NCBI GenBank assembly: GCA_973895155.1
Contig: OZ316891.1
Span: forward strand, 8,743,875-8,807,874
Direction: 5' to 3'
Source of the DNA: Marsupella aquatica
Taxonomy: Eukaryota; Plantae; Marchantiophyta
Length of the DNA: 64,000 nucleotides
Shown here piece after piece: positions 65 through 37,628 of this stretch. The notes beneath the pieces were generated by a model. It was not told the origin of the DNA. It ran no database searches and was given only the letters and a program-made list of their open reading frames with translations. The first letter of the stretch is position 1. Every line of letters begins with the position of its first letter. Position numbers and translations under genes: made by a program.

Positions 65-1940
65 TTGAATCAACCGGACTTTACCAAGGCATCTTTAGCC
101 CCAGGAGTTCTCGAATCATTGAAGGAACAATTCTTCAAGGATAAAATTGTTCTATGTTTTGAAGGGGTGGTTAATATCCGACAAGCGGAACTGTGGATAG
201 ATTTGTACAATCAACAGCATATACATCAGTTGGAAATCTTTGAACCTTTAGCAAATGCGCTTTTTGTCATTTCGGTTATCGATACTGATCCTGTTAAAAC
301 AGTACAAGCATTGATTCTTTCGTCTCCCCTCATTCTGGCTGAGTTCCAGCATAGTCGTGCTCTACAGGCTAATCTTTCGGGTAAACCTCTTCACATTGAA
401 GACCGCCAGGTGTCGATTAATGAGTTCTCTCCGAACTTCAACCCAGAGAAGCCAGAGAATTTCAAATATCTAGTTACCATTAAAGTCGCTAAGGCCAATC
501 ACCTTTTATACATGATTATTGATTCGGTATTTCAGAAATTTGGGAAGATTACGCGGCGACATGTCAGTGAAGGAATTGATAAGCACAGTATCATTATCCT
601 TCTGGAGACTAAATATCGTCAGTGGACTTCATCCATCTTATTTCAACTTAGCGCCACAGAGGAGACTACCATACAATTTGAGGTCATTGATAAGCAATTA
701 CGGTGTCAACTCTGTTTCTCTCCCACACATTTGGCGGACCGGTGCTATCAAGGGGACGGAGGGGTGATCAGAGGAGGTCAACAACGATATCAAGGATCGG
801 TACAGGGGCCGCAACGAGACCTCTCCCAACGCAACGAAGTGATCCGAAGGCCGATACAGAAGTTCAGTTGGAGCAGTGCAGTCAACACGGGGAATGCGCA
901 GTATACACAGCAACTGAGAAACAATTGTCCGGAGATCCAAGAGTGGACTAAAGAGCGGCTGATAAGTCAGATCTGCGAAATTGTCCAGTGTCTTCAAGTA
1001 CATTTGCTCCAGAATTGGCTATCAATTTGGCTATCAAGCAGGCTCAGAGTTTAGCCCCCTTCATACTTGAATAAGAAGAAGGAACGTTTGGATAAGGAAA
1101 AAGAGAAGGATAATCAGCCCGAGGTTAGTCATTCAACATCCAAATGTTCATCACATATTCAGCGGAACACTAAAGTAGTGAGTAAGCAGGAGAAGGAGTT
1201 CAGAGACGCACAAGCCTTGGCACTTCGGGAGTGGCAACAAATACAGGAGGTGGAACTCTTGAAAAAAGAGAATCTATCAATTTTGGAAGAGAAAAATCAG
1301 CAGTCTTAAGGGGAAGGCTGTTCAAGAATTGATCACTCCTAGTAATCCTCAGAGCTTTCGCGGTGTTTGTGAATTACTCCCCATACAGGAGACTAACTCA
1401 CTCACAGAAACAGGAGATACTCCTCTGCATCCTAACCTCTTGTGCACTCCGAATCTGAGTGGAATTTTTCCGATTGATTTTGAAGGGATTCCAGCTTCTC
1501 AACTATTCTCTCATCTCCAAGAGTTACACAAGAATATTACTGAGAGGTTAATTACTCTGGCGGGACCAGATACAAAGTCCTTGGAAGTTCCTGTGAATTT
1601 GGTGGGACCATTGGGTACTTTCACATCGGTGAAACAATCGTTAGCAGGCAGCCCTGATTTGGTGGCAAAGCAGTCGCTAGTGGGAAGCCCTGATTTGGTG
1701 GTAAAGGGTTTGTCACTTAAAAGAGGGAGAAAAAGTGCGGTAGCATCTTCATCTCAGATCAAACCTTCTCCTAGGACTCGTCGTCATCTGTTTAAGCATT
1801 TGCCAATTGAAGGTGGAACTAATCAAGTGGGTAGTACATCTTGTCAGATTCCGAGCTCGGGATCTCCTTTTATCCCTGATTCTCAGGTCTTGGTTACTAC
1901 ATCTGATAAGATCACCAAAGAACAGTTACCATCTCAGTAA
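65..1940 (+). pseudogene. LINE ORF1 (gag-like), broken by stops and frameshifts
   Basis: ORF pieces 65-1054, 1067-1309 and 1329-1940. Zinc knuckle CQLCFSPTHLADRC. Lies directly upstream of ORF2. Confidence 0.7.
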
Positions 1941-1965
1941 GTTTGGGTTCCATTTGAGTCCTCTG

Positions 1966-4659
1966 ATGAAATTACATATTGTCTCACACAATTTACAGGG
2001 GCTTTGCGGGATGGACCGTATTGCTAAAGTTTGTCAATTCATTCGAGAGGCATCTCCCAGATTGGATGTCTTTTGTGTACAAGAACATCATCTACGGGCA
2101 GGAAGGCTTCCTATGCTCTCATTTCAGATTTGGAAGGAAGCGGAGATTTTTTTCTGTCCTGCGACAGATGGCATTATGGCATCTAGAGATCCTGCTGCTG
2201 ATTCCGGCAAAGGTGGTTTGTTCATGGCAGTGGGGCCCAGGATGTTACTTCACTTGTTTCAGTCGGGTTCCTTCCGGGGGGAAGGGGAATGTGGTGTTCA
2301 TTTCATCATCCTAAGCTTGGTAAATTTGGTATTATTAATATCTACGCTCCAACTGGTCAAGAAGGAGCATGTGAGCATACTAGGCTTTGGAAGGAAATTT
2401 TTGAAACCATTCCTAATGATCAGGCTTGGATATTGGTGGGCGACTTCAACATGGTTGAAGATCTTATGGACCAAGCTGGCGGAAGACCTCATGTGGTTTC
2501 CGGAAGTGAAAACGGGCTTGGGAACATCTTAAGCGCAAGATGAAATGGGCTGATACTTTCAAAAAAATTCCTGGTCAACTTCGATTCTGGTGGTGTAACA
2601 GAAGGACAGTGGAAAGTGGGGTAAATACAGAACGTATTTACAGGCGTCTTGACAGGTGTTATGCTCCCACGGATTCCTCTCTTGTTCACTTTTTGATTGT
2701 CTCCCGTATTATCCCAGCTCAGTATATGTCTGATCATCACCCTATTTCTGTGATTGGTACTTCGGGGGACCGGTCCCCCTTTCCTTCAAGGTTCAAAATG
2801 AACATCGCACATTTCAAAGATGTTAAGTACCGACAGCAAATGGAGCAACTGTTGGTGAGTGAAGTGACCAGATTGGAACGGAAAAAAGTCCCTCTAGATA
2901 AGTGTCTTGAAATCTGCCTCAAAAAGGCAACTAACTTGGATAGATCCTGGGGGAAAAAACAAGCTATGATTTGTATGCTCAAATTAAATGTGCTAAGAGA
3001 TGTCTTGGCTAAAGCTCAGGTTGATTTGGAACTGGATCCTCAAAATGAGATGTATCAGTTGAGATTCCTTGATTGTCAAAAACAATTGAAGCTGTTGGAG
3101 GAAGGAAAACTTAAATGGATTCAAGAGGCAATGCGAATGAATTGGATTCAGTATGGTGATGTCTGTACGAAGTTACAGTTCAATTCTTTCAAATCCCGAG
3201 CTGCTGCAATGGAAGTCAAGGGTCTCTATGATGCTGACAGGACAGTTCAGAAAGAGTGGGATGCGATGTCTAAGATCGCTACTGATTTCTACACCAATTT
3301 ACTTTCATCTAAGCACATTCCATCTGAAGAAGAGCTGGAAAAGGTGCTAGATAAAGTTAAGATCCAGATCACCCCTGAAGATCAATTGATGCTTGAAGCA
3401 AAACTGACGTTGGCAGAGATTCACATGGCAACGAAGGTGTTGGGTCAACATAAAGCCCCTGGTCATGATGGGGTCCCGGCAGAATTCTTTCTAACCTTTT
3501 GGGATCAGATTGGCCCATCTCTTCTATTGGCGCTCAAGCATGGATTAGAACGGGGATGTTTCAGTACATCCTCCTTTCTGAAAGGGATTATTGTTTTACT
3601 CATGAAGAAATGGGATGAGTTTAAAATTGAAAATAAGCGACCAATATCACTCCTCACTGTGAGCTACAAAGTGGGAACGAAGACGTTTCAATTACGCCTG
3701 GTGAAAATCCTGATCAAGGTCATTTCAACTCAGCAGTATGCGTACTTACCAAGGAGGTCTATTCATCACACACTGCTGTTGACAAATGAAATGATTGATC
3801 AGGCTATGATATCACCGGACCCTTTTGTCTTTTTAAAACTTGACGTCATCAAAGCCTTTGATAGCGTTGAATGGATCTTCATTGAACGGATCATGGAAAA
3901 AATGGGCTTCGGCAGTTTCTTTGTCAAGTTTTTTAAATCCATTATGACCAATGCATCATCCACTATCTTGATCAATGGCAGAACCACGAAGTGTTTTAAG
4001 ATCACTCGTTCTGTTCGGCAGGGGTGCCCGATTTCACCTCTTTTTTCTTGATTGCTATTCAAGGATTGGATTGTGTCTTATCAGATAAACTTTCATCTGG
4101 AGAGTTAGAACGAGTTCGATTCCAGCGAGAAGGGCTTCATCTTGCCCAAAAATTCTACGCTGATAATACTATGATCATTTTGAAAGGTGATAGGCAGAAC
4201 ATTAATATCTGCAAGGAGTTATTTGGATTTTTTGCCACTGCGTCAGGTTTGGCCTGTAACTGGGATACGGCATCTGCGATTCTTTTGAGCAACGGATCTA
4301 TTCCAGCGGACCTGAGTGACTTACAATGGGTTTGGGAGAGCCCGGGTCATTATTCAAAGTTGCTTGGTTTCTTTTTTGGAGCGGATGGGATTGATAAAGC
4401 TCACACATTGATTTACATCAAGGAGGTGCTTGCAAAAAAGCTTGTTCAAATCAATAAGAGACCTTACTCTTTTATGGCCAGGGTTCTGGCGATCAATCAC
4501 ATCATGATGGGCTCTCTTTGGTATACTCTAACCCTTTGGTGTGGAACGGATGAAGAACTGCACACCATTAAAATGGCTATGATTGATTTTCTATGGGCTA
4601 GACAAGCTACTTCGGCTCGTCACCAGATCAGTTTCAATATCCTTGCTCTCCCAAAGAAG
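1966..4659 (+). pseudogene. LINE ORF2 5' part: APE endonuclease plus reverse transcriptase, frameshifted
   Basis: ATG at 1966 (MKLHIVSHNLQG). APE motifs: VFCVQE, INIYAP, LVGDFN, RLDR, SDHHPI. RT motifs: KAPGHDG, RPISLL, KLDVIKAFDSV, RQGCPISP, YADN (degenerate YADD). Confidence 0.92.
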
Positions 4660-4991
4660 TGTCACACCATTTAGAGTGGTAGTAAAGTATATCGTACTAT
4701 CTAGGATATAGAGGTTTTATATGTGTGCTATATGAGCACTTTGTGTTTAGTTTGAGTTGGTGTGAGGGATAGTTATCCCCTTGTGTTGGCTCAAAGGCCT
4801 CATCTTTCAATGTTGAGCCTTTGAGCATGAGCTTGGTGGCTATAGTGTGGCTGACCAGGTTGTGTGCATGTAACGTGGATTCCTTGAAGCACAAGGTGCG
4901 TTGGGCTTGACATATATGTGTGATCGAGTCGGACGGGATCGATGTTGGATTAGCACTGATCGTTGTTCGATTTCATCCAGAAAAGATTACA
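4660..4991 (+). repeat. Repeat block A1 (TG...CA, 332 bp)
   Basis: Near-identical to 13923-14252, with about 3 transitions counted by eye. Confidence 0.93.
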
Positions 4992-5000
4992 TTGAAAGAT
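4989..5000 (+). promoter_or_regulatory. Putative self-priming primer-binding site
   Basis: ACATTGAAAGAT is the exact reverse complement of ATCTTTCAATGT at 4802-4813 inside block A. No TGG-type tRNA PBS follows the CA end at 4991. Confidence 0.6.
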
Positions 5001-5569
5001 CACTGCAAGTTGATTCAAAGCTGTTCGAAGCTTGCTGTATTGCAGAGTTGATCCATGGTAGCTTGGATTGTTGAGATCTTGCTGGTTGACTTGTGGTAGC
5101 TCAAGTCAGATCAGCCGTTGGTAGATTGGAGATTGTGAGCTATTGATTGCTCTGAGAGTACAGCGTGGTGCTGTTTGAAGCTCTCTGATAGTTTGTTCAT
5201 TGAAGTTCTCTCTGGAGTTGATTACCGGATTGACATTTGGAGCTTCTCGAAGCTATGGCAATGAGGGATTGATCGAAGATCAGAAGGCGCCTCAAGTGGT
5301 AGTTGCTACATTGTGTTTTTGGAGTTCTAGTCCTTATCGATTGCGTTGCAGCATCGCAAAGACTATTGCGGATTTGAGATTCGTTGATGGATAGTACACT
5401 TTTACGAAGAAAGTGACAATCAAATGTTGGTGAATTGCGTTGTCGGCGTCACGATGGAGTCCGCGTTGCGACGAGGTGCGGCAGCGACCTAGGGCACAAG
5501 GAAAACGACAATATTGTTGAACAGTGTTTTGGTCCGAGAATTGCGGCGTGTTTTGTGGCGCGCCTTGTT

Positions 5570-5942
5570 TTGGACTAGGATCATCCGAGTCCAATTGTGG
5601 GTTGTCTCTTGAGACTTCATTTTGACTCAAAGTTGGATTTGGATTGGGATCATCCGAGTCCAATTGTGGGTTGTCTCTTGAGACCGCATTTTGACTCGAA
5701 GTTGGATTTGGACTAGGATCATCCCAATCCAACTGTACATTGACAACGTTGGAGACTTGATTTTGGGCGAAGGTGAAATTGGATTGGGATCATCTCAATC
5801 CAACTGTATGTTGGCGTGTCCAGAGACCTCATCTGGACCTTGAAGTGGATTTGGATTAGGATCAACCCAATCCAACTGTATCTTGGTGACTTCACCTGTG
5901 TAGAGGATGTGAAGGACTTGGACTGGGATCATCCCACTCCAA
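5570..5942. repeat. Array of six 25-bp palindromes (consensus TTGGATTGGGATCATCCCAATCCAA) at 67-72 bp period
   Basis: Copies start at 5570, 5639, 5708, 5779, 5851 and 5918. Arms are 12 bp around a 1-nt centre. Confidence 0.9.
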
Positions 5943-6194
5943 CTTGTGGACCGGGCGTCCGAATGACTATTGAATGGATTTGAATTGGAGGTTCACCCCG
6001 ACATAGCGAAGTGTGGCGGGTGTGAAGGGCTCCCTTAGGCTCATCTCGGCGTTTCAAGGCGACTCGTGACGAGGGGCGTGAGGACGGAACAGGAGCCAGA
6101 CCGGAGCGGGCCGCAAGGTAGCTTGTTGGTACGTGAGGAGTAGTTGACAATTGGTTGGTTTGGAGTGCCTAAGTTGGTGCATAACTCCAAGGGG

Positions 6195-6265
6195 GGAGGT
6201 CACCCATCCCAAAGCTATTCCTCTTGCGCGTGCTTAACCATGGAGTTCTTATGGCATGTAGTGTA
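6195..6265 (-). ncRNA. 5S rRNA-derived segment (Pol III internal promoter A-box/C-box region) within the retrotransposon leader
   Basis: The plus strand reads GGAGGTCACCCATCC...GCTTAACcatGGAGTTCTtATGG. This matches the reverse complement of plant 5S rRNA (C-box GGATGGGTGACCTCC and A-box GTTAAGC region) at about the right spacing. The 5S ends are not conserved. Confidence 0.72.
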
Positions 6266-6568
6266 CACACAAGTTTTCACAACTTGTTGTCTAAGTTAAA
6301 GGGCCAGGGGGCTTTATACACTTATTAGTTTGTCTAGAGACCTGTTTTGGGCCAAATTAGATGCTACTTGGAGGTTTTTGATGCTTCTGAATCCATCTAG
6401 ATGCATAGATTGGATTAATTTTTCATGGATTCTTAGCTACAACCTTGGGGCATTGTGAAGCCTATTATGAAGGTGATGGTGATGATTTAGGGCAGATTTG
6501 TCATCACGGATTCTTCGGGTGCTACGGAACTGTCCGAGGGACAAAGGACCGGTTTCACTCGAAGTGGG

Positions 6569-8284
6569 GTGCCGTTTCGGCCAACGACATTGATAGCAGT
6601 TCCAAGTGCAGCTTCAGATAGTGATTCTGACAAGGACTCTGTGACCAGTTCTCCTTGTCATCGGGTGATTGCACCTTTGTTGTGGGATATGGAAGAGATG
6701 TACGGGGCTACAAAGGGTCCACGACGATACTCTGGTGCAGTTGGCACGATTGATCTGGATGACTTCATCCAGGAGTTTGATACGTGGTGCGACATGCAGT
6801 CATTGCGTAATGCCACGTTGTTTACCCCTTTCATGGCATGGAAGGGATTATTTCAGCATTTGGAGGGGCCACCCATGGATGATTACCATGAGTTTTGGAA
6901 GGCTCATTTGGTTGAGATTGAGGCATGGAGGCAGCATTGGTCACCTAATTATGTGTCCATCACCTATGGCACTAGAGCGGCTGCCCAACCCATTGCTATA
7001 GCTGTTGCTTCTTCTAGTAGCACTAGCCAGAGTGGCACACCATCTACCAGTACCACTCCAACAACATCCACCGCTACTCCTACCAGTGCGATTGTGACAG
7101 GGGTTGGAGTCACGCCAACATTTAACCCTGTGGTGGAGTTCTTTGAAGTATTAAAGCAAAACTATCAGGGTGTGAGGACTGATAAGTTGAAGGGTCTCCA
7201 GGAGTTTCAGTGCAAGACTGAAGAGAGTCTACGTGAGGCATACACTCGTATGCGCAGATTGATCATTGTCACCAAGGGAGTGACAGAGGCTCAAGCAGTC
7301 CAATTTTGGTATGCAATTCTGGATAGAGAATTGCGACGTAGAGTGAGAGATGTCACTCTGCTTAGGGATGCAGATCCCACATTGGCAGTTGTTTTTACAC
7401 TTTCTGAGCGAATTGAGCTCAATATGGTGAATGAGAAGGTGGTGACTTCCGGATTTGCCAAGGAAGCACCCAAGGTTGCATCTACATCCACACCACAGCC
7501 TGTTGCACGGAAGAGCCAGAGGGAGAAGCCTACTGCACGAGAGTCTACCAGTCAGAGACCTGTGCCTTCCTATGTTGGACAACAATCAGGATGTTGGACC
7601 TGTGGTGGGGATCATGCGCAGCGGTATTGCCCTGATCCTAGAGGGTCAGGAGGGGCCTCAGCAACTGATCAGCGGTAGTGTGATCATTGTGGAGCTCCTG
7701 GACACACCAAGGATAGGTGTTTCTCACTCCATCCCGAGTTACGGAGAGGAGGACAACGCACACATGATCAGGGAAGAGGAGGTAGAGGTGGTGGTCATGG
7801 CCGAGGTATGCCACATGTAGCGAGGCAGGGAGGTGATGTTGCTCCTGCTGTGACCACAGATCCTAAGGATGCTAAGATTGCTCAATTGGAGCAACAACTA
7901 GCTGCTATGGCTAGTTCTCAGGTGAGACCTGCTTCTGGTGATGGGGCTTCTACATCCTATGGGGCTTCCACATCTTATGGGGCTGATGGAGATCTTGCCA
8001 CCATGGGATTCATGTGTGGCACTGCACACATTGATGCATCAACAGTTTTGACGTGTGGGGCAGCAAAAGCTCTTGAGCCCCGAGGAGCAGTAGTGGACCT
8101 AGATCCATAGAGGGGGGATGCACGTCGTCAGACAAAGCTTCCTCAGTCTTTTACATTGTCAGAGACAGTTCAGACTGCCTCTATGAACCCGATTCGGACA
8201 AACCCTAGCGTGGGTAAGTTGGCAGAATCAGGTAGTGATGCAACAGGGATGACAGGTACCCTACTGGGGCGGCTACTACCATAG
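6569..8284 (+). pseudogene. Gag with two CCHC zinc knuckles, in-frame TAG stops at 7676 and 8108
   Basis: Capsid-like region (ESLREAYTRMRRL). Knuckles CWTCGGDHAQRYC (7592) and CDHCGAPGHTKDRC (7679) in one frame. First ATG at 6689. Confidence 0.85.
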
Positions 8285-9345
8285 TGCGCACCCCATTATT
8301 TTCAGCTACAGACATGCTGAACTTGGGAGTTGGTCCTGCAGAAGTGTTCAGATTGGCAGCTACACTCTGTGAGGACACTCCAGTTGTTGCTTCCCATGCA
8401 AAAGCAGCTTGCAGTGTTGAAGCTGTGAAGACCATGCCACCTACGGCTACTAGCGAGACCTGGCATGCAGCAACAGCGAGGTTGGTGGATTTACCAGCAC
8501 GCCCTGCATTTGAGAGGACTAGGTTTAAACCTAGTGTTGTGTCATTGGATAATCGGAGTGGTATCTTCCGATTAGTTGGGTCTACTGGAGCCATATACCA
8601 GCTAGAGAGAGTGTTACTGGATACTGGTGCTCAGCCCTTGATGTTGGGTAAGTCTGCGGTACGAGGATTGGCATTGCGTCCAGATGATCTGGAGGAGTGT
8701 CCCTTTCCTATTCAGACTTCATTGGGGGGACCTACACCCACACAGCACATCACCAGACGACCACTTGAATTGAGGATTCAGGAGGGTCATGCCAAGGATA
8801 GCTCCCACATACGAGCGCGAGCTATTTTGACTAAGGCCAAGTCCTATGACGTGTTGGTGGGATGTACAGTGTTGTACCCCATGGGATTTATTCTTGATTT
8901 TTTGGATGAATCAGTGTCATACAGACCTGATTGGCAGTCAGGAGATGCTCGATTGAGCAGGTTGCCAGTGCAATTTAGTGGACCTGTGGGAGGCCCTAAA
9001 CCCACACTATTGTCTTTGGCAGCCTTCAGTGGTGTGATCACTGGTCCTGATGATTTGATGAAGGGTAATGCACATGCAGCAGATGTTCCATCAGTGGAGG
9101 AGTCACATGAGGAGCAGATGGTGCGAAGGAGCAACTTGGATTGGGATGATCCCAATCCAACTAGTGTTGTGCCACCAGTATGGGGTACTACACAAGCCTT
9201 GCCGCAGAGGGCAACACAATTGGTACATGATGCATGGCGTCATGCTTTTACACCACAGTCAAGAGCAAAGAAATCTCCTACAGGTGGACCAGTGACTCTT
9301 TCACCATTGGATACCACTCCTATTGCATGGCAGTATCCACCAGAG

Positions 9346-10290
9346 GGTATTTGTTTGCTTGATCTATTTGGTGGAATTAGCACTGGATTGGCTACTATTC
9401 TTCAGGCAGGAATTCCTGTGCGTCGATACTTGTATGTGGAGACAGATGAGACAACACGGAGAGTCTCATTGCGCCATGTGGCTATGTTGGTAGACCGTTA
9501 TCCACAGTTGTTGCCAGTGGATGTTGTTCGTGGCTATTAGCATGCATTGCCGGCTGATATTTCATTGCTGGGGGCGGATCATTTGGATCGCGTTGGCCCC
9601 ATTGATTTGGTGATTGCTGGTTGGTCATGTCAAGGCCAATCAAGAGCTGGAGTTGGACATGGACTTCATGATCCACGCTCTGCATTATTTTGGGAGATGT
9701 TACGGGTATTGCGTCATCTCCAGTTACACCAAACACATTCCCCTGCCTATATTTTGGAGAATATGCCACTATTGGGTGATGAGCGTCATCGACTTGTTGC
9801 TAGTGTTCATCAGGTCAGATCTTGGATTGGACCTGCTGTATTATTGGATGCTGCACGTATGGGTTCTCGTGCACATCGTCCACGCTTGTGGTGGACTAAT
9901 TTGTTACCTTGTGAAGTGTTGAAGCGAGCATTTGATAGCATTCCTCGCTCAGCATCCTTGGTGGTGGATGATATTTTGGATCCAGGGCGTTGTGCACAAC
10001 ATGTGACCCAGTCTGACATATCTCCATTGGCAGTGGTCAATGTAGTTGGTCGTCCGCATTGTGCATTACCCACTTTTGTGAGCCATTCTACTTCATATGC
10101 ATTTAGAGCAGGTGGGCCTGGACTTGTATGGGATACAACGCTACAGCAATTAGTGGAGCCTACTACTGATGAAAGAGAGCGTGCTATGGGATTTTTGACA
10201 GGCACTACTGCAGTTGCCTCGGTGTCAGAGAGTTCACGCCGCCAAGTCCTTGGTCAAGCCATGGATTTGAATTGCTTGACTTGGATTATC
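9346..10290 (+). other. C5 DNA cytosine methyltransferase domain (DNMT3-like) within Pol
   Basis: Motif I LDLFGGISTG; IV DLVIAGWSCQG (PC changed to SC); VI YILENM; VIII AHRPRLWWTN; IX ERERAMGF; X RRQVLGQAMD. All in canonical order. Confidence 0.9.
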
Positions 10291-13200
10291 AGCTTGGGAG
10301 TAGTTGAACAGTTGCGGATGCGCTCTGCTGGTGTTACTGATCGTCCATTAGTGAGCTTGCGGTCCACTGAGACAATGATGACCACAGCTGGGGGCGAGCA
10401 TGCAGTCCATGGACCTATGGCAGGATTGGCCCAGGCTGGACAGATTGTTGAGCAGGAAGGGACTGCTCAATCTATTGCTAAATAGCAATCATTGGCTATC
10501 TCTTCTACCCTACAAAAAGATATTAGGGATCTGGTGAAGAGTTGGGAGCCACAGATTGGTCCTAAGTTGACAGGGGAGGAGAGACGTCGCATGCATCGAT
10601 TCTTGAAGAGTTACTGGAATTGTTTTGCATTCAGCATGAAGGATTTGGGGACATTGAAGGGCCCTGGTATTCAGATTGAATTGGCTAGTGATGCGCCAAT
10701 CTTTCGTAGACCATATCGTTATAGTGACATGGAAAGAGCTCTGATTCAGAGTAGAACTCAGGATTTGTTGGAGGCTGGTTTGGTGGAGATCTCATACGGG
10801 GAGTATGCATCTGCCACAGTGATGCCAGCCAAGAAGGATGTGCATGGTAATTACACGGATAGGCGTATGTGTGGTGATTACCGACCTATTAATCGTCAGA
10901 CAAAATTTGATCGATATGCCATGCCCACACCTGAGGAGATCTTTGATGCAATGGGGCATGCAAAGGTTTTTAGTTCATTGGATCTGAGGGCAGGGTACCA
11001 TCAGCTTCCAATCAGACATTCTGACAGGTCCAAGACAGCATTCTGGGGAATTGATTCTTATGGCAAGGATCGTTTGTATCAGTGGTTGTTCTTACCATTT
11101 GGGTTGAAGAATGCACCTGCTGAGTTCCAGAGAGTCATGGATCGAATCCTTGCAGGTTTGGATTTTGTCAGATGTTATATTGATGATATTTTGGTTTATT
11201 CTTCTACTGTGGAAGAACATCAACGACACTTGCAGATTGTGTTTGAGAGATTGAGGGAACATGGATTGAAGCTCCATCCCGGCAAGTGTAAGTTCTTCCA
11301 AGAACAGATTGAGTATTTGGGCCACACTATATACCCAGGGGGATTGGGTGTACAATAGACTAAAGTGGAGGCCATTACACAGATTCCTCGTCCTACTGAT
11401 GTGAGTAGAGTTCGTGCATTCTTGGGATTGGCGAGCTACTATAGGAGGTATGTTAAAGGATTTAGCCAGCTTGCTAAACCTTTGACCATACTCACTAAGT
11501 TGGATCAGGAATGGATTTGGGGTGATGATCAGGAGCATGTCTTTCAGGAGTTGAAAGAAAGATTGGCATCATCCCCTATTTTGAGAAGACCCATTTCAGG
11601 GAGACCATTTCAGCTACACACTGATTGGAGTGGAGTAGGACTTGGAGCAGTGCTGACTCAGAAAGATGATGAAGGACATGACTTTGTTGTGGCATATGCC
11701 AGTAGATCAAACAATTTAGCAGAGGCTAAGTATAGCTCTTATGAGGGAGAGTGTTTGGCAGCAGTGTGGGCTGTGGCACACTTCCGCTGTTACTTGTTTG
11801 GTAATCCTTTCACTTTGATCACTGATCATCAGCCTCTCAAGTGGTTAATGGAGTTTGACAAGCTTACAGGGAAGCTTGCACGATGGGCATTGTTGTTATA
11901 GGAGTATGATTTCCAGGTGGTGCATAGGCCTGGAAAGGTGAATTTGGATGCAGATGGGTTGAGCCGCAATCCATGTACCAGTCAGGAGGATGAGACTGGA
12001 GCTAGATGGCATGATGAGTCAGATAAGGAGATGGTGTCAGGATGGCATGCATCTGCCTTCCTTTGTTGGGTTCCAGCATGCAGTGGTTCTGTGGACTCTA
12101 CTTCATTGGATGAAGCAGATGATGAGTCTTCAGATGTGGATGTTGGTGAGGTAACTTTTGGACAGCAAGATATTCACAATGATGTGAAAGTGTTGGAATA
12201 TCTGCGCAGTGGTTCTATTGTTGGCAGTATTGATGCCAAGGAACGTGACAGGGTTCTACAGAGAGCCAAGAGGTTTCGATGGGAAGGAAGCCATCTTTTG
12301 AGAGTACTACGTGATGGTAAGGTATTGGTGGTACCAAAACCATCACAACGAGTACATTTGGTGCGACATGCGCACGAGGAGTTAGGGCACTTTGGTGTCA
12401 AGCGCACTTATAGCTTGCTGCAGACACAGTATTGGTGGCGTGGTATGCACACTCATGTCCAACAACTGATAGCTAAGTGTGTGGTATGTGATCGAGTGAG
12501 GGCATCATTTAATGCTCCCACTCCCCAGTTGCATCCATTGCCAATCATGGGTTTGGGGTACAGATGGAGTTTGGACTTTGCTGGTCCATTGCCTCTCACC
12601 CAACGATATAACCGTTATGTTTTGGTTATGGTGGAGCACTTCTCCAAGTGGATTGAACTAGTGGCATTGCCAGATAAAGCTAGTGGAGGAGTGGCTACCA
12701 CATTTCTGGATCGAGTACTTAGTCACTTTGGAGCACCAGCTGAGGTGTTGACTGATCAGGGCACGGAATTCCGTGGAGATTTTGAGGGTTTGTGTGAGCA
12801 AGCTCTGATTGACCATCGTACTACTTCTCGCGATCATCCTGAGGCAGATGGATTGGCAGAGAGAGTTGTACAAACTGTGAAGAGAGGATTGCGCAAGTAT
12901 GGCTTATAGGTTGGTCATTTGGGAGACTGGGATCTCCAACTACCTTGGTTAGCTATGGGCTACCGTTTCAGTCGACAAGCATCACTTGCATCCTTCTCAC
13001 CCTATTTCTTGCTCTATGGTAGAGAGCCAGATTTGCCAGCGGCTATTTGTCGTGATGTTGCAACTGTTGTGGATTTGGATGATCCAGATATTTGGATAAA
13101 GGTTTGTTCAGAGAGGGCACGAGTTTTTGAGAGAGTCATGCCCATGGCCTTTGACAACCTTGCTATTGCCCAACATCGTGATACTTTGCGATATGCTACT

Positions 13201-13470
13201 ATTTGTGGAGGAGGTTATCGCACGAAGATTAGGAGATTTCATCTTGGCGATTATGTTTATTTGCAGCAGATAGCACCAACAACGCTTGATGTGACCGCAG
13301 GGCGGACAATCTTGCGTGTGCGTGAAGTGTTGCCTTCTGGAGTCCTTATGTTGGAAGGGCGTGATGGTATGGTTTGGAAGGATCACATGCGTAATTGTGC
13401 GCCATGTCACCTTCCAAACATTGATGGCATTGTGGATCCAAGCTTGGCACATGTTCGTGCTAGCTTGAAG

Positions 13471-13608
13471 TGTATGTTGTGTGGGTCTGCTCAGGAAGCA
13501 GCTACTATGTTGATTTGTGATAGGTGTTCTAGAGGATGGCACATGTCGTGTTTGACACCACCCTTGCACATGATTCCTAGTGGATCATGGTTTTGTCCTC
13601 AATGTCGG
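13471..13608 (+). other. PHD finger at the integrase C-terminus
   Basis: CMLC...MLICDRCSRGWHMSCLTPPL..IPSGSWFCPQC, a C4HC3 pattern with the conserved Trp. Confidence 0.92.
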
Positions 13609-13775
13609 TGATGCCGACTAGTTATCATTTGTGTTCTTGTGGAAGATATAGATTGCAGGTAGGTGATCGATGGGGCTCACTTGCACCCGGCCTCCTGATC
13701 TTCGCACCTAAAAAGGTGTATATTAACCTTGTAGAACTCATGGCTAGCTAGAGTTAGGGGACCTCACTCCCAGCT

Positions 13776-13786
13776 AGGGGGGCGAT
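13776..13786 (+). promoter_or_regulatory. Polypurine tract
   Basis: AGGGGGGCGAT lies immediately before TGTGGG, the start of block B1. Confidence 0.7.
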
Positions 13787-13920
13787 TGTGGGTTTTAGGC
13801 ATGTGGACATTGGTTCCATTTGTACTCCATTCTCTTATGTTCGTGTTAGTGGATTGTGACTATGTTTGAATATGTGTGACAAGCGATGTATGTTGTGTAG
13901 CGATGTGTATGCGCACGACA
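13787..13920 (+). repeat. Repeat block B1 (TG...CA, 134 bp)
   Basis: Matches 14254-14387 with one transition seen. Confidence 0.93.
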
Positions 13921-13922
13921 GC

Positions 13923-14252
13923 TGTCACACCATTTAGAGTGGTAGTAAAGTATATCGTACTATCTAGGATATAGAGGTTTTGTATGTGTGCTATATGAGC
14001 ACTTTGTGTTTAGTTTGAGTTGGTGTGAGGGATAGTTATCCCCTTGTGTTGGCTCAAAGGCCTCATCTTTCAATGTTGAGCCTTTGAGCATGAGCTTGGT
14101 GGCTATGGTGTGGCTGACCAGGTTGTGTGCATGTAACGTGGATTCCTTGAAGCACAAGGTGCGTTGGGCTTGACATATATGTGTGATTGAGTCGGACGGG
14201 ATCGATGTTGGATTAGCACTGATCGTTGTTCGATTTCATCCAGAAAAGATTA
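13923..14252 (+). repeat. Repeat block A2 (lacks the terminal CA)
   Basis: Copy of 4660-4989. Confidence 0.93.
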
Positions 14253-14253
14253 T

Positions 14254-14387
14254 TGTGGGTTTTGGGCATGTGGACATTGGTTCCATTTGTACTCCATTCT
14301 CTTATGTTCGTGTTAGTGGATTGTGACTATGTTTGAATATGTGTGACAAGCGATGTATGTTGTGTAGCGATGTGTATGCGCACGACA
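14254..14387 (+). repeat. Repeat block B2, 3' terminus of the element
   Basis: Copy of B1 ending GCACGACA, followed by resumed LINE sequence. Confidence 0.93.
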
Positions 14388-14391
14388 AAAG

Positions 14392-16330
14392 GAAGGTGGA
14401 GTTGGTCTTATAATATCTTTTGAAAATCAAGTGCACGCCTTGGCTGCTAGATTCATCATGTTCGCGTTGTCGGAAGGTTCTCATCCTTTACAGCTGCTAT
14501 TAAGATCTTGAATTCTCACTCTTTCAACTCATCGGTGGGGAGTAGAGGATTATTCTTGGATTTTTCACCCTTGTCGGACTCTGCCATCTTCGGGGAATTT
14601 GGAAAATCATTTGTAGATCCTGGAATAAGCTGAAAATACTTCTGGAACCTACTATACCTGATAATATTTACTCCAGCCTGGATATCTCACTTTGGTCGCC
14701 ATCGATTAATCATCTGGAGTTTTGTAAGGCAGGGTGTAAAACTAATCCGCAACGACATCTACGTTCGATTGGTCTTAAGTGTTGGGGAGATTTGATTCCT
14801 ATCACTAGGATCCCCATTACATGGGAGTCAATGATTGATATGGGTGCATTACCACGGGAGAAAGATGCTTTCCTAGCCATTCTGGCCAATGCTCAGATAC
14901 CACTTTGTCACATGGATCACTCGATGGTGGAGAAATCTGTGTTGATTTCCTCTATTCTTGTCAGGGAAGGTAATACTGTTTGGGAATACCTTATTCCTAA
15001 TCATCAGATGCAGGATTGCTGGAGGTTAGAAGATCTTTGACAGGATCCAACGCACACGTACATTATTCAGGATGGAATGTTATGTAAGATTGATAATCTC
15101 GGGGGGGTCACTATATGGAGGGCCATACATCGCGTGCGACGTTTTAGGGTTTGACCCCCCTAACTTATAAGTGAAAATTATTTTTTTGCAAAGCCCTTTC
15201 TTTCTTTAAATTTTGTCATTTTTTATTAAAAAACCCCTAAAAACTTTAAAGAAAGTATTTTTTGCAATTAAATAGGCCTATGTGTTCTTTAAAGTCGACC
15301 AGTCAATAAAACATGCCCTATGTGTTCTTCCACCAAACTTTGGAAGTCTTCCGCCACACCCATTTAAATGGGCCTATACTTCGTCGCACGTGATGTGCCA
15401 CTTCCATGGAAGTGACCCCCCCTGAGTTGATAATGCTCAGATTTCTGGGGATGTTTTACACAACATGGTGTTGGGCTTATCTAAGAGCTGGCGTACACAT
15501 AAGATCGGTGTGGGATTGAAAGGCGCTTACAAGTCTGAGGTTGGAATTTCCAATCGATACCGGTGGAAAGATGGTAAATATTTTTTTTATGCAAATACAG
15601 CTAGTATTCGAAAGATGTTACTTAAGCATTCATCGGGAAGTCTGATTGGCTATAACAAGTGGAGGATGGAAATTCGTGGGGTACCGGATGTTAGTAAGGT
15701 CTGGAGTGGAATCTGGAAAGCATATCGGGAGGAAAAGATCAATCACTTCCTTTGGCAAATTGTGCATCGTCTTTTAGCTACGAAGCATTATATTGGTTGA
15801 CGGTCTGTTAGATACTTAGAGGATGGTACCATGATTCCATTTACTCGTGATGATGCCGCATGGTGGTGTTCTCGCTGTGATCTACGTTCTCATGAGGACA
15901 TCCTCCACTGCCTCTGGTCATGTCTGTTTTCTCAGAAGCTTTGGGTTTGGATCTTTTCTATTATGCAGCATGCTGCTGGGCCGAATGTTGCCATCTTCCA
16001 TTTCGAGGTTGTTCATGTCTTTCTTAGTGCAGCACTTCCATGTAACTGTGGTATTCCTCTTAAGATATGGCACATCATTAGAGGAATAGCCATATGGCAG
16101 ATTTGGAAAGCTCGTTGCACCTTGGAGAAAGAAGCAGTTATTTTCTCTCTCTTGCATCCAGTGCAAGATCTGGTCTGAGATCCGTTTATGTTTACGGATT
16201 ATTTGGCAGAATGGTTGGAGAAACCATATGGAGAAAGGTGGCTGTTGGCAGGAGTTGGTTGGCAAGATGAAAAGAGACTTGGGTCGTGCAATGGTGGCAT
16301 TTATGAGTTGGTGGACCAATGCATTATTGT
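14392..16330 (+). pseudogene. LINE ORF2 3' part including the zf-RVT region, degenerate
   Basis: EGGVGL resumes at 14392. Later motifs: KINHFLWQIVHRLL, CSRC...EDILHCLWSC, IWQIWKARC. Confidence 0.82.
15098..15426. mobile_element. MITE with about 45-bp imperfect TIRs and an 8-bp TSD (hAT-like)
   Basis: Ends CTCGGGGGGGTCACT...AGTGACCCCCCCTGAG. TTGATAAT is duplicated at 15090-15097 and 15427-15434. AT-rich interior. Confidence 0.88.
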
Positions 16331-23080: not shown

Positions 23081-25687
23081 TTAGGGCTTGGTATTGCCTA
23101 CACTTAGTACTTTTCCAAATATGTCTGTGTCAATGTGGTCTTTGTCTTGCTCTTTCTGTGGCTCTTCTCCCACATCCTTACCATTCCGCGGTATTTCCAC
23201 TTTTGCATCATTTGGATGGAGAAATTTAAGTTTTGCTCCAGGTTGAGGTGGAGGATATGAAGTATCACAAATCCTATCAGATTTCCCCCAATATACCCAG
23301 TCTAATCCTTCTGTTCCATGCTCTACCATGTACATCTCCACTGACCCCCATACTTTATTCTTTCGAGGCCACTTCCATTCCTCGACAGGGGTTTTCTCAT
23401 CTTCCAATCTTCTGCCTACCAGAGGACGAAGTACTATGGTACCCAAAGTGGGTTCATTGTTCCAATTGATCGGCACTACTGGAGATTCTAAGTCTTTATC
23501 CTTAAGAACTTGTTCAAGGTCGTCTGGTACTTGAACTGCTTTGTCGGCCTTGATTAAAGCCTCATTTGAATATGATTCATCTAGTTGTACCACTTCCTTA
23601 CCTTTTCCTACCTTACCTTTTTTCCCAACTGAGTTGACTTGAACTAAGCCATCCTCTTTCTTTGAAGAGTCGGCATTCTTTGCTTTTCCCTCTTTATCAT
23701 CACCTTTTCCATTCCCAACCTTGGTCACTGCTGCTTTGTTATCTTTGTCATTGTCCCCCTTATTCTTAGAGATTTGGCTGTCTGTGATCAATGATCAAGA
23801 AGACTGAATTTCATGATAAAACATAGGTTTGAGATTCATTTTGAGAACAAGATCTGGTAGACTTTTAGTGAATAAGATGTCTTTCCCCTGTTGGCTAAAA
23901 TTTACCTGCTCGATAATTGCTAACACAAGATCATTTGATAAATACATTGCAAGTGTACGTATGCTAAGAATCGTCCAATGAATTGTTGAACAAGCATTAC
24001 GAGATCCACAAAACTTTGAAAGGTACATGGCACCACAAGTGTACACCCCACTTTTCCTATTCACATCTCCAGAGGAAGTGAATAGAAAACAGCAAACCAT
24101 AGTCAAACTCAAGTTGGAGTGGTTTGGCTTACTTCTTTTCTTGCCTATGTCAGAATCTGAAGCTTTCTCTTCCTGAGCAAGATCACCAGTACCTTCTATA
24201 GGGCTTGGGATAGGTGGACAAATAGGCACATACCACTCCACCATAGAGCGCCACTTGTTCTTCCTATGGTTAAATTTCTTGAACCAAACTCCTTCAGGTA
24301 TGAGTATTTCACCCAAAGAAGGTGTATGGGTATGCTCTTGCTTCTTGCAATGATTCCCGAGATTGAAATAAGGATGGTAAAAACATCCTAGCCCTGGGCA
24401 GCTAGGATCAGTTACAGGGTCTATACTATCATCTATCAACAACTTAGCTTGGCTCCCCAAGAAAGTCCAAATTAACTTTATTTTAGATTGTTTTTCATCT
24501 TTGGATGCCCTTTCCTTGGTGTCAGGTTCTTGTAACTCCAAATCTCTTTCACTACCTTGACTTTTTTGCAGATCCCTTGACGCAACATAATTTCTTGCTA
24601 AATTTTCTGCTTTTAAGTTGACCTTACTTTCGGCATCTATCAAGGGCTCAAGCAGTTTATCTGTGTTGGTTTCCATACCCTTCAGACTGCTCATTTTCTG
24701 AGGATTGTCAAGTATTGGAACTGGAATTTGTTTCACGGTTCCATTACCATTTGGATTTACAGCCTTTTCTGATTTCCTTCTTGAATTGCTGCTTTCATTT
24801 GGATTTATGTTTTTTGCCAAGGAGAACTCATAATTGGTGTTAGTTTCAAATACTTGCTTCAATTCTGCCTCCAGTGCATCTTCGTCCAATGATTTGTCCT
24901 CCTTCAAGATCTCAAAGCCACTACAACGGTAAAGTTCCACCCTCTCATGAGGTTTGTATGTCACTGGATCAAGTTGGGGAGGATCAGCAATCTTTTTGGG
25001 CTTAGGTTGCGTTTTACCCCCGGGTTTACCTTTCTTAGTTTGTTTGTTACCTTCCATTGGCTGCTCTTCATTGTCTAAATCAACTTCAGTGTCTCCTTCT
25101 ACATAACAACCGATGCGCAATATCAAGTCTCCCTGTTCAAACTTGAACTTCTTGTCCCCATCATGGCAAATGCAAAATCCACCACCAATCCTTTTGCTCT
25201 TCCACCATAACTCCTCAGGAGATGGCTTAGGATCTAATCCCAATCCTCTTGGGTGAACTATTAAGATGTCACCCCTGGCTGGTGTAAAATATGGATCCAC
25301 ATCTCCAGGGTATATGAGATTGGGATCTTTATCAGGGGGAGTAGGAGGCCTAAGACGAGGTGGCCAATAATAATTTATCTTAAGACAATTATCGCAAAGT
25401 TTGTCACAACGGATCTCATCAGGGTGCCATTTTAAAGGCCTTCGAATCAAGCCATCCTCCTCACTTTTCTTTTCCTTTCCAATGTCAGGAAAATCTGGCA
25501 GGATGCTATCTGTCCCCTTGGATTCCATTGGAGGAGACGAAGGAGCACCTAGTATAGGCTTCAATAAATCTTGATCATCCTTCTTCTTTGGCGACATTTT
25601 CCCATCTCCTTTGGAAGATTTTGCAGTTTCATTTTTTGCAGTTTTGTTGTTTTTCCTATTTTCTCTGGCTCCTTTTGTATCAGCCAT
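23081..25687 (-). CDS. Two-exon gene for an unknown Lys/Asp/Glu-rich protein, about 751 aa (exons 25687-24133 and 23781-23081)
   Basis: Long biased ORFs. A GTAAGC donor at 24132 and a CACAG acceptor ending 23782 splice in frame (phase 1) and remove the stop at 23795 plus an atypical hydrophobic stretch. Confidence 0.7.
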
Positions 25688-28600
25688 ACTCAACACCCAA
25701 TAGCAACGTGGTGATAATAATGAAATGAATCTCAGCAACAGAGATTGAACAACGTGATTAGCTAGACTTCTCTGAAAGAGCCAATCTGATCAGCACAAGA
25801 AAATGACATCTTTGTAAACTAAGCTTATGATTCATAAAAGCAAACTTCTGGCAAATAGTTGGTATCAACTAAAAATTGCCAATCATGCATTAATTTTTGT
25901 GCGAAGGGAACATTTTCCTGATTCAGGATGCCAAGGAGTCCTTCTGGTATAACTTGGTATCCTCGGTGTACACCTGGACAGTGATTATGATGTGAGTAAA
26001 TAATGTCTCAAAAAGGTCAGTTGCATGGATTGGTACTGTTAATATTTGTTAAAAGTCTGACACTATAGTATGCTAAAGCAAGATCAAGTTAAAACAATTT
26101 CCTCTGCATGACATGCAAAACCATACATGACACAGGACATAACGTACACATCTATAGATAATGCGACGGGTCATGGGACCAAAAGAAAGGACAAAATTGT
26201 GAGATTTAAAGGAACAGGGTGCCCAATGTTTGTTAAGAAACCAATGGACATTCTCCTCGGATGTAAATAACTATGGACTTGCAATTAAGTCCTACTTGGT
26301 AGATCATAGCAAGAATTGTATAGTTTCATGTTCAGTATATAGCAGCAAAAACGAGTGTAAAACTCTTGGATAAACAGCATTTTCTTTTTTGCAAAAGGAG
26401 AAGGAAAACTCTGCCCTAACAAATTGGCCAAGGAGAGGCAATTGGATGGATATTATGTTGAAATAGATCCAGCTCAATTCATGAGAAAGAAAATGCATGC
26501 AGACCCAAAAGAAACAGCTGTCAGAGGAAGCAAGCCCCATCAGTAGATCATTCTAGAAAGCATTGTAAGGGCCACCCAATGCTTTGTCAAAGGCATCGAG
26601 GTTGATTTACCAAGGAGTTGGCAATTTGTACGTTCCTGGAAGTATACTGTCTGTCTCTGATGATTTTTGAATGCCAAGTTTTGGAGTTTGATTGGAACCT
26701 GCACATTTGGATCTTTTTTATTACTAGTTAGAAGTTGTCAACAAGATGACCCTGTATTAGCTATTGCTGGCAACTACATCAACAATCTATGAATGGAATT
26801 GAACACAATCTTAGAATTATTTCATGAGCAAAAAGTAGGGCAACAATATTGGCAATACATGGCCACACTATGTTGTTTTTAGAGGGGAACCACATTTGTT
26901 GTAAGAGTAATTGGTATTAACAGCAGTTATCAAGCCCTGAGGATTTCCTGTATCATCATGGTTCATAGTGTTTGCTTGAATGAACTCTCCTGCAAATGTG
27001 CTGGAAAATGCTGTGTCATGATTTTGTTAAGGGCCATGGTTACCATGAATTATTCTGAACAATCAGGATACGAGGGGAAGCCCATTAGGAGGAAAACTCT
27101 AAGGGAGATGTCCAAGTCTTACTCTTACTCTTACGTTTGAGTGTGGTTGGCTTTATCTCTGATGATTTACTTAGGTCTCAGTTGTGGCCATGCGGTTAGG
27201 GTTCACAAGTTTGCTCAGGAGACACATTTCACCATCCCTTGTAGCCTGTACACCCCTTCAATCTATTTGGTATCAATATAGTCATGCCTTCAGGATTTCT
27301 AACAAATATGTGATATTAAAGGTCCACGTTTTTCAGGAAACAGAGAGACTGATTAATTTCACATTTGTCTTTATTAAGAAATTGGAATTGCCGATCAGCT
27401 TCTATCAACAGCTATAAAGACTTCGGCGGGGCCCTAGACTGAGGGATTTCATGTGGCATGATGGTTCCTTAAGAGTGTTTGTTTGAATGATGCTTTGGCT
27501 AATGCTGCCTCATGGTTATGTAAGGGGCATGGTTACCATAAATATTGGGTATGGCTTCAACATGTTTAGAGAAGATTTATCATGGACTTACTCTTCTGAT
27601 GAACATTCTTCACCTTGATAACATACAATCAGGATAAGTCTATCAGGGGGATGAGTCCAACTGGAGGACCAAAACTTACTCTTTTGCTGAGTGTGATTAG
27701 CTTTATTGCTAACGATGTACTTAGACCTCATGCTGTAAGGGTTACTTAAGTTCCTTGTAGCATTTACACACCTGCAATCCATTTGCATCAATACTGCCAT
27801 GACTTCAGGTCAATTGGTTAACTGCAACATCTGAGGCTCAGCACATCCTTTCATGTCACGCACTATGCCTGCCAGGGTACTACCAACAAGCCTGATTTTA
27901 TATAGTGTTGTATACACCTAATTTAACTTCTTATGCTGTATAAAACTTTGGTCAAAGTACTTTGAAAATATTTATTTCGGATTGCCTGTGATGCCTATGG
28001 TTTTTTGGGGGTCGATCCCCTAGGACTGAACCTCAAAAAATTATTGAAATATAGCATCGCTTCATCTGAAAGATATTAATAATTTTGGCATCTAGTGTTT
28101 CTTGGTATATCTGTCACAATATTTGTTCATGCATGATATCAAGTCACACTGAATGTACATTGAGCATCTTTACTATCAATCCAACAATCAACTAGGGCAT
28201 AGGTGATTTGAACCGTTGAGATCAGTTCAAGAATTAACATTTTAATAGTAAGGTCTTAATTTGGTGCCTTCTGGGGGCCATCTGCCCCTGGGGTAAGATT
28301 GATCTCTGTTGTTGCCCCAGCGGCCAGAGGTATTGTGTGCTGAGAGTAAACAAGAATTTCTGTTAGCAAGAAGAGTATTGCTAGCAAGGCACATTAGTGA
28401 TTCTTTCTGCCTTTTGATTTTTGTTGATTTATGTATTTCTAGTGCACGTCTAAGACTCCATATGGCTAGCCAAATAGAGGAGTTCCAAGATTGAGTTTCA
28501 CTAGAAAATGGCGCAAAAGTTACAAACCAGGTCTTGGCTAACTGGAGACTGAGTTTGCTAGCAAAGCTCTATAATATAACCTTTAGGGTTATTCTCTCCT

Positions 28601-30971: not shown

Positions 30972-31187
30972 CTAGCCCTGGCTCGGAGCTCGAGCAACTT
31001 TTCCCTCTCGGTTCTTGAAAATACGCACCCTTCCGAGGTTATGGTCTGCGGTCAAGAAGGATCCTTCCGGCACAATGTGCACCTGCATGTTAGGGAGCTC
31101 CTCCAGAATCTTCGTCTTCGCCTCCTCCACGTTCAACCCAACCAGATCCGGCCAGGACTTACTCGATGGGTGCCTCGCCGCTGCCAT
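30972..31187 (-). CDS. Potato inhibitor I family serine protease inhibitor, about 71 aa (an N-terminal extension via an upstream exon is possible)
   Basis: KSWPDLVG..VEEAK..I, reactive loop GSFLTADHNLGRVRIF and C-terminal P..G match the family signature. Confidence 0.9.
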   Translation of the reverse strand: MAAARHPSSKSWPDLVGLNVEEAKTKILEELPNMQVHIVPEGSFLTADHNLGRVRIFKNREGKVARAPSQG

Positions 31188-37550: not shown

Positions 37551-37628
37551 GAAACCCATATATCAAATACAGATACCAAATACATTAAAAACTTATAAGA
37601 GAGGTTATAAAAGTTGACATGGATGTAA

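Follow-up and report, generated by a model that had tools for sequence, protein, structure and literature searches.

A decayed Gypsy retrotransposon of the liverwort Marsupella aquatica with its own DNMT3-like methyltransferase, a leaky-type stop codon and a permuted LTR

Introduction

Why should a retrotransposon carry a DNA methyltransferase of its own, and at which step of its life would the enzyme act? The question is raised by a Gypsy element at positions 4660-14387 (TGTC at its start, GACA at its end) of a 64,000-nucleotide stretch of the genome of Marsupella aquatica (contig OZ316891.1); the whole stretch is called the window below. An initial annotation, made from the letters alone, had proposed that a DNMT3-like cytosine methyltransferase is a working part of the polyprotein of this element. 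According to the accessible part of de Mendoza et al. (2018, PMC5890265), the role of retrotransposon DNMTs was left open, and the Gypsy type came only from an alga without genetics.

We consider it moderately likely that the window copy is a decayed member of a multicopy Gypsy-DNMT3-PHD family in the KnitGypsy-Dnmt3 lineage, in which a methyltransferase made in bulk at the level of Gag would probably methylate the cDNA, and in which a circular form would be opened inside the LTR. Gypsy elements equipped with a DNMT3 are already known as a kind, in print so far from an alga only within the literature searched, and the kind is extended here to land plants and chlorophytes. The leaky-type stop and the permuted LTR with its internal attachment site are well supported as facts of the sequence, and the mechanisms proposed below are what we infer from them. 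Within the literature searched (Repbase Reports, subscription journals and theses lay outside the search), we found neither of these two features in print, and no paper describing a permuted LTR with self-priming, CARYYA in retrotransposons, the Marchantia copies, or PHD/DNMT Gypsy elements.

Organization and decay of the element

The element can be read in one long frame (8239-13611, with X at five TAG codons) that leads from a DTGA motif through a C5 methyltransferase, reverse transcriptase (RT), RNase H and integrase to a PHD finger (Table 1). In this Pol frame Pfam matched DNA_methylase, RVT_1, RT_RNaseH, Integrase_H2C2, rve and PHD; the Gag frame gave no Pfam match, and no additional long frame was found within the element. 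The protease (PR) of the initial annotation stands as a motif and not as a Pfam family: no protease match was obtained on the Pol frame of the window copy, and the assignment is carried by DTGA together with 40-41% identity to relatives with weak Asp_protease_2 matches.

Table 1. Features of the Gypsy element in the window, with positions, strand and the basis of each assignment
Feature	Positions	Strand	Basis
Left target-site duplication, GAAG	4656-4659	+	right copy AAAG at 14388-14391, one transition apart
Repeat A1: 3' part of the LTR, left end of the element, begins TGTC	4660-4989	+	match of about 330 nt to A2
Predicted transcript start (5' end), also the self-primer	4802-4813	+	12-nt complement of 4989-5000
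Primer-binding site of the self-priming type, no TGG tRNA-type site	4989-5000	+	complementarity to 4802-4813
Gag, two zinc-knuckle-like motifs	6689-8265	+	Gag-PR-DNMT models of Marchantia are 50-68% identical
Aspartic protease, DTGA at 8620	8536-8943	+	weak Asp_protease_2 matches of the homologous region in P0017 and P0021
DNMT3-like C5 cytosine methyltransferase domain	9340-10308	+	motifs, Pfam, sequence and structure comparison
Native stop TAG, then CAA TCA (CAR-YYA readthrough context)	10483-10491	+	reads and relatives
RT-RNase H-integrase-PHD frame	10486-13611	+	frame reading and Pfam
RT	10855-11331	+	
RNase H	11518-11907	+	
Integrase	12340-12840	+	
PHD finger	13471-13605	+	
Purine tract abutting B1, inferred plus-strand primer	13776-13784	+	G tract before B1 in relatives
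B1-GC-A2, one complete LTR	13785-14252	+	B1 13785-13920, GC, A2 13923-14252
Palindrome GACA-GC-TGTC within the LTR, inferred integrase attachment site	13917-13926	.	found unchanged or decayed by transitions in families A, B and C
Repeat B2: 5' part of the LTR, right end of the element, terminates in GACA	14252-14387	+	136-nt match to B1; A2|B2 is the putative circle junction

The window copy is dead. Stops at 7676, 8108, 9538, 11356, 11899 and 12907 occur in none of its relatives, the Gag frame breaks near 8265, where other copies in the reads are one letter different in length, and the methyltransferase has SC in motif IV and ENM in motif VI; the damage listed in the initial annotation (TAG at 9538, SC and ENM) is all there. 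Between A1 and A2, 3 of 330 places differ, all by transitions, and between B1 and B2 a single one of 136, again by a transition. The surrounding DNA is an L1-like LINE (endonuclease and RT; 1744-4659 and 14388-16200, plus strand), the ORF2 of which is split by the element, and an empty insertion site was recovered in contigs of runs X1 and X3, where 4656 is joined to 14389 and the LINE frame runs through.

Several other features were noticed in and around the element. Its leader contains five tandem units of about 70 nt (5535-5885), one of which reappears at 9136-9162 in the coding linker between PR and DNMT. ARAGORN reported zero tRNA genes in the 64-kb window. The flanking genes had been described as land-plant-like, which is supported by a potato inhibitor I gene (30972-31328, minus strand) and by one dehydrin gene with a dehydrin-like neighbour that has no Pfam match (48347-48739 and 51479-51877, both on the plus strand); a HOP/STI1 co-chaperone gene lies at 58798-61465 (minus strand). 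For a flanking gene, the ESM Atlas returned only dehydrin look-alikes, all under 0.9. Broken RT-like frames at 35768-37562 (minus strand), with a C-terminal zinc finger and a restriction-like endonuclease pattern and no Pfam match, presumably resemble CRE-type non-LTR elements. Finally, lysine-rich open frames of 664 and 237 codons occupy 23081-25789 (minus strand), the 664-codon frame without a Pfam match.

Identity of the methyltransferase domain

Frame reading confirmed the C5-methyltransferase motifs I, IV, VI, VIII, IX and X that had been proposed at 9346-10290, with the spellings LDLFGGISTG, GWSCQG, ILENM, AHRPRLWWTN, ERERAMGF and LGQAMD, and a Pfam search of the Pol read through its stops, the check suggested with that proposal, was positive for DNA_methylase at residues 454-518 (E 1.3e-6; 28.5 bits, cut-off 22). 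The motifs are unpermuted and DNMT3 is the nearest solved relative, so that the likeness to DNMT3 claimed at the outset was upheld by both structure and sequence. With an AlphaFold model of the domain (pLDDT 77.9, pTM 0.81), Foldseek returned DNMT3A, 3B or 3C in 35 of the 35 rows listed (best E 1.1e-14, TM 0.62-0.71), and when the uninterrupted relative L013 was compared with PDB sequences, 29 DNMT3 sequences outranked HaeIII, HhaI, DRM2 and DNMT2 among the 50 matches. The PHD finger of the element is nearest to those of CHD4, KDM5B and ATXR5.

Relatives, phylogeny and selection

The domain search yielded 54 proteins out of 4904 candidates; with a profile search aimed at longer proteins the figure was 69 out of 7994. 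A full HMMER scan produced 439 clusters with E of 1e-30 or lower; at 50% identity there are at least 150 clusters, the best 150 all with E below 1e-62. Among the named sources, Marchantia polymorpha shows 59-75% identity; the other bryophytes are Calypogeia fissa, Sphagnum fallax and S. troendelagicum, and the algae are Closterium, Klebsormidium nitens, Haematococcus, Pleodorina and Cymbomonas. The nearest named relatives of the element are liverworts and mosses, which, together with the flanking dehydrin and potato inhibitor genes, makes a bryophyte, a non-seed land plant, the likely host. In four public read sets, thousands of contigs, 85-100% alike, cover all 30 element bins, that of the DNMT included, and the element therefore belongs to a multicopy family that carries the domain, as the initial annotation had expected of other copies. 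From a metagenome scan, the best 80 of 374 confirmed stretches were sorted into family A (23 loci, about 60-70% identical; a moss family, its spacer matching a Sphagnum fallax model), family B (4 loci, about 50% identical) and family C (53 loci, about 35-43% identical). No relative was found in the viral contigs searched. Marchantia polymorpha has 18 members within one 90% cluster. Among its annotated genes, Mp_4g09160, Mp_Vg00370, Mp_5g06330 and others, labelled 'hypothetical', correspond to the Gag-PR-DNMT frame of the element, and several such models are on the V chromosome.

Two domain orders were found. The DNMT precedes RT in the window, the bryophytes, Closterium and Klebsormidium, and it lies between RNase H and integrase in proteins with chlorophyte names, of which no description was found in the literature searched. 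In a FastTree of 142 RT-RNase H rows, the outgroups of which came solely from the same search as the ingroup, all DNMT-bearing rows formed one clade (support 0.948) and the rows of the second order a subclade of it (support 0.905). This subclade is large (P0029, P0031, P0221, P0264 and others), its polyprotein being a single frame that can reach about 3100 residues. The proteins without DNMT within the RT clade mostly begin no more than about 150 residues from RT and are therefore no proof of domain loss. DNMT distances correlated with those of RT-RNase H over 84 elements (Mantel r 0.67, reached by 0 of 999 permutations), which, as far as such distances can tell, shows long co-inheritance and nothing beyond it, since kin share both; one capture, after which the domain moved, would be the simplest reading of the two orders. 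The link with algal retro-DNMTs was borne out: the Klebsormidium nitens protein KFL_009030040, with its DNMT ahead of RT, falls into the shared RT-RNase H clade and has 45.6% identity over 252 aa of the DNMT, in trees that include no host DNMT3. Just outside the DNMT clade branches P0260, a PHD-bearing Gypsy polyprotein with a match to a Dam adenine methyltransferase (PF05869) and no DNMT.

Purifying selection on the domain, another point of the initial annotation, is evident among the families. All five comparisons of the window DNMT with family A gave dN/dS of 0.12-0.14 (at dS of 1.7-2.1, near saturation), the two uninterrupted copies L013/L015 gave 0.12 (dS 0.26) and L025/L022 gave 0.09; close dead copies ranged over 0.27-0.86, and the two most distant pairs gave 0.29 and 0.15. 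Values of 0.09-0.14 were thus obtained in 7 of 14 pairs, all of them between lineages or uninterrupted copies. A passively captured host gene fragment in decay would suit the breakage within the domain of the window copy and the values of 0.75-0.86 in close dead copies, yet the low dN/dS in half of the pairs, the number of clusters and the correlated trees speak against it, and we regard this idea as refuted by the family data and give it practically no weight. The domain is, as first proposed, a kept part of the element.

A conserved stop between DNMT and RT

The methyltransferase had been placed in a single Pol frame between PR and RT. The order is right; the single frame is not, for between the methyltransferase and RT there is an in-frame stop, at 10483, that is conserved. 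Judging from reads and relatives, this TAG is native and not a product of decay. In the proteins of Marchantia, Calypogeia and the family-B-like group, the Gag-PR-DNMT frame ends about 60-190 residues past the domain, and the closest protein of all (P0110, 86%), which keeps PC and ENV, has its last residue exactly one before the window stop. In 4 of 4 runs the letters of TAG CAA TCA showed no alternative at 3% or more, with the highest depth at that place, and the variant letters found at seven places of 10430-10550 all fall outside them. Within family A the site is present in 19 of 23 loci and holds a stop in 18 of these 19 (12 TAG, 6 TAA, the remaining one TAC), with CAA CC following in 18 loci, L004 and L008 of this family looking like a single copy. 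L013 and L015 have TAG CAG TTA, and apart from this conserved site L013 is stop-free across 973-8227, from Gag to PHD. Family C has no stop, a point against readthrough, and keeps DNMT and RT in one uninterrupted frame, so that this trait varies within the lineage.

A stop followed by CAR-YYA alone directs readthrough in plant viruses, at about 10% in vivo for TMV, according to the parts consulted of PMC2194720 and PMC2754532. Only one of the eight stops in the two frames of the window, that at 10483, has this context. From these comparisons, RT, RNase H, integrase and PHD are very probably made by readthrough of UAG CAR YY, as a minority product in the form of full Pol. Would the stop instead be a true end, with RT-integrase translated from a spliced or separately initiated message? 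In favour of this, Tca2 shows, in the accessible text of PMC2194720, that an in-frame stop need not be passed via local readthrough signals, and the CAA CCC of family A is one letter off the CAR-YYA consensus. We hold it to be improbable, given that the two frames are in phase in all unshifted loci of families A and B, that CAR follows the stop in three families with differing flanks, and that the CAR-YYA of the window and of family B is exact. With readthrough at a rate like that of TMV, there would be about ten times as much DNMT as RT and integrase. As the last part of the Gag-PR frame, the enzyme is likely produced in bulk, with every Gag; the leaky stop would in this way offer a clue from dosage, an enzyme at capsid level, to the job of the methyltransferase.

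One LTR cut in two and the proposed insertion cycle

The repeats of the element follow the A-coding-B-A-B layout known as DIRS-like. We read them as a single LTR, B-GC-A, that is cut in two, because a self-primer site follows A1 and a purine tract precedes B1, just as they would flank such an LTR. A G tract stands before B1 in 12 of the 12 elements with B1 available, and in L013 as well, and a tRNA-type primer site, sought after A1, is absent. The self-primer match measures 12 nt in the window, 12 in L051, 15 in L040 and 15 in L025, lengths that 0-3 of 2000 shuffles reach (3 of 2000 for the 12 nt of the window). In the window this pairing is seen in both the MFE and the centroid folds, and the same relation recurs with other letters in families A and C; the decayed L076 retains a match of just 6-8 nt.

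The two joints between the repeats behave differently. In the window and in families A, B and C, the B|A joint reads GACA-GC-TGTC, a 10-bp palindrome, or a variant of it in which the decay is nearly always by transitions. At the A|B joint, the window, L008 and L051 are exact, and variation is seen among nine copies of family C, which keep 0-3 letters of the primer site or have lost letters of B. Ragged joints of this sort are what joined cDNA ends in 2-LTR circles leave. After removal of seven duplicate loci, 12 two-ended elements could be inspected for target duplications: 7 have exact ones of 4 bp, 4 differ by one transition, and 1 has none. The duplication of the window can also be read as 3 bp; Troyka elements were considered in this respect and ruled out, as their CG...CG ends, 3-bp duplication and animal hosts (PMC12440569, as far as accessible) do not agree with the element.

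We propose, in line with these repeats, that the RNA would start near 4802 and prime itself as in Tf1-type elements, and that ordinary reverse transcription would give a linear cDNA with two B-A LTRs, of which the inserted form would be the circular permutation. It seems fairly likely, on the evidence of the joints and ends, that end-to-end joining turns the cDNA into a circle, in which the DDE integrase makes a cut, staggered by 2 nt, at the palindrome of the upstream LTR, and that the ends so made are the ones it inserts. For most LTR elements an end-joined circle is a dead end. If true, this reading explains why ends like those of DIRS occur together with a DDE integrase, and insertion of an LTR element from a circle via an internal site would be a new route for this class.

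Among 24 right ends, 13 go on as B-A(-B) and 11 end after a single B, and three A-internal-B copies with both ends available each have target duplications. The latter could come from a one-LTR circle or a double cut, or from later recombination between B1 and B2 after insertion. A plain two-LTR circle would have two equal palindromes, yet the mirror form A-B-A-internal-B was seen at none of 29 left ends; the two are thus not used equally, an asymmetry that speaks against the proposed cut. Only the B-A-B form would retain the repeat required for the next round, and selection would then favour the bias, since no form other than the observed one could go through further copying.

A cycle of the DIRS/Ngaro type offers another view, in which the RNA would run from A1 into B2 and the B1-A2 joint would template closure of the circle, with the integrase in place of a tyrosine recombinase. 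It shares the A-coding-B-A-B layout with DIRS (PMC5890265, accessible text) and would explain the missing mirror form. We judge it unlikely all the same, as the self-primer site and the purine tract sit exactly where a standard B-A LTR needs them, and the A|B joint varies while B|A is constant, which points to fresh end-joining rather than copying. A tyrosine recombinase was sought in the element and not found; an rve and H2C2 integrase is present.

What the methyltransferase may do

The chances are about even that packaged DNMT methylates the cDNA or circle ahead of insertion, with 5mC placed, like that of DNMT3A and SymbioDIRS-Dnmt3, probably at CG. The enzyme would first have to be released by PR and packaged into the particle, as had been proposed at the outset. 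The PHD finger, nearest to fingers of the CHD4/KDM5-PHD1 type, might steer insertion via histone H3 tails. The points on either side of cDNA methylation are roughly balanced: the Gag-PR fusion, the selection and the CG activity of SymbioDIRS-Dnmt3 argue for it, whereas the inactivity of the Klebsormidium domain in yeast and a CpG loss that is not raised here argue against. As a sign of self-methylation, CpG depletion was looked for and showed nothing extra in the element (0.48, against 0.52 in the rest of the window).

Might the domain be kept without methylating cDNA, as a DNA-binding or particle part or as an enzyme acting on RNA? The Klebsormidium domain had no activity in yeast (PMC5890265, accessible text), EC takes the place of PC in family C and in many algal forms, and the Gag-level dosage exceeds what one catalytic pass would need. 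Such a role is nevertheless rather unlikely in our opinion, with the catalytic Cys retained in 21 of 22 loci of family A and in 51 of 53 of family C, EN of motif VI in 22-23 of 23 and 50-53 of 53, respectively, and the SAM-binding F-x-G-x-G across families, and with SymbioDIRS-Dnmt3 domains that methylate CG, as reported in the accessible part of the same paper. In motif IV, 21 of 22 loci of family A still have P, and 52 of 53 loci of family C have E instead. Along with EC, family C and many algal proteins often have ENT or ENA as motif VI, the domain still being under selection; a change of specificity or of activity is possible for these forms.

An active enzyme could also do its work in the nucleus instead of the particle, with integrated copies or host chromatin instead of cDNA as its target, and damp its own family or competitors. 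This option was raised by de Mendoza et al. (PMC5890265, accessible text), and bulk expression would allow it. Against it, the enzyme is fused to Gag and PR, the domain is without a chromatin reader of its own, and the PHD finger sits on the integrase, so that nuclear action strikes us as quite improbable. Fusion to Gag is the usual route into particles.

Returning to methylation of the cDNA or circle, a wider proposal may be put forward tentatively, with rather less than even confidence: a green-lineage clade, from chlorophytes to liverworts and mosses, might have shifted its attachment site away from the LTR tips to a palindrome within the LTR, use the circle as obligatory substrate and load DNMT3 at the level of Gag to pre-methylate this circle. 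If this is true, LTR-finding software misses or mislabels the clade, and dozens of 'hypothetical' genes of Marchantia are Gag-PR-DNMT frames. Counts of DNMT3 genes in bryophytes can, in any case, be inflated by the frames of such elements. More promisingly, the lineage is multicopy in Marchantia polymorpha, a tractable model with methylation mutants, and the question of the DNMT's role is therefore testable.

Comparison with known systems

The closest described system is KnitGypsy-Dnmt3 of Klebsormidium nitens, with Dnmt3 in Pol and DIRS-like repeats. In the accessible part of its description (de Mendoza et al. 2018, PMC5890265), its domain falls into a divergent Dnmt3 clade and gave no methylation in yeast, a result called inconclusive by the authors, while SymbioDIRS-Dnmt3 domains have CG methylation activity; later papers, as far as accessible, cite Gypsy-Dnmt3 elements as streptophyte. 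The window element shares with KnitGypsy-Dnmt3 the Gypsy domain set, the intronless Dnmt3-like domain, the A-coding-B-A-B repeats and purifying selection, the description again being available in part. It differs in its land-plant host and in the leaky-type stop between DNMT and RT, which the Klebsormidium model, with both in one predicted protein, does not have. A PHD finger, self-priming, an internal attachment site and target duplications go unmentioned for KnitGypsy-Dnmt3 in the accessible text (PMC5890265). On sequence grounds, the window element belongs to the described Klebsormidium lineage and is not an independent case.

With regard to Ty3/Gypsy elements at large, the order PR-RT-RNase H-integrase, the TG...CA ends and a target duplication within 4-6 bp are all found here; in place of two complete terminal LTRs there is one whole LTR inside and two halves at the ends. 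The Tf1/Sushi and Tcn1 chromoviruses resemble the window element as Ty3/Gypsy elements of mosses, in self-priming and in ending the integrase with a chromatin reader (Neumann et al. 2019, PMC6317226, accessible part). The window element, however, has a PHD finger after the integrase where Tcn1 has a chromodomain, and in addition the DNMT and the permuted LTR. The DIRS, Ngaro and PAT elements, SymbioDIRS-Dnmt3 among them, share the A-coding-B-A-B repeats and a circular intermediate and, for SymbioDIRS-Dnmt3, the Dnmt3 domain, as far as the sources could be consulted; the window element departs from them in its DDE integrase, protease and 4-bp target duplications.

Foamy virus integrase cuts the palindromic junction of 2-LTR circles (Delelis et al. 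2005, PMC1180852, accessible part). Its site is the LTR-LTR junction, by which normal ends are restored, whereas the site in the window element would lie inside the LTR and lead to a permuted copy. Finally, readthrough of the TMV type has the same UAG followed by CAR-YYA (PMC2754532, PMC2194720, both as far as accessible), and what sets the window element apart is that its stop is in a retrotransposon and comes after PR and DNMT, not after Gag.
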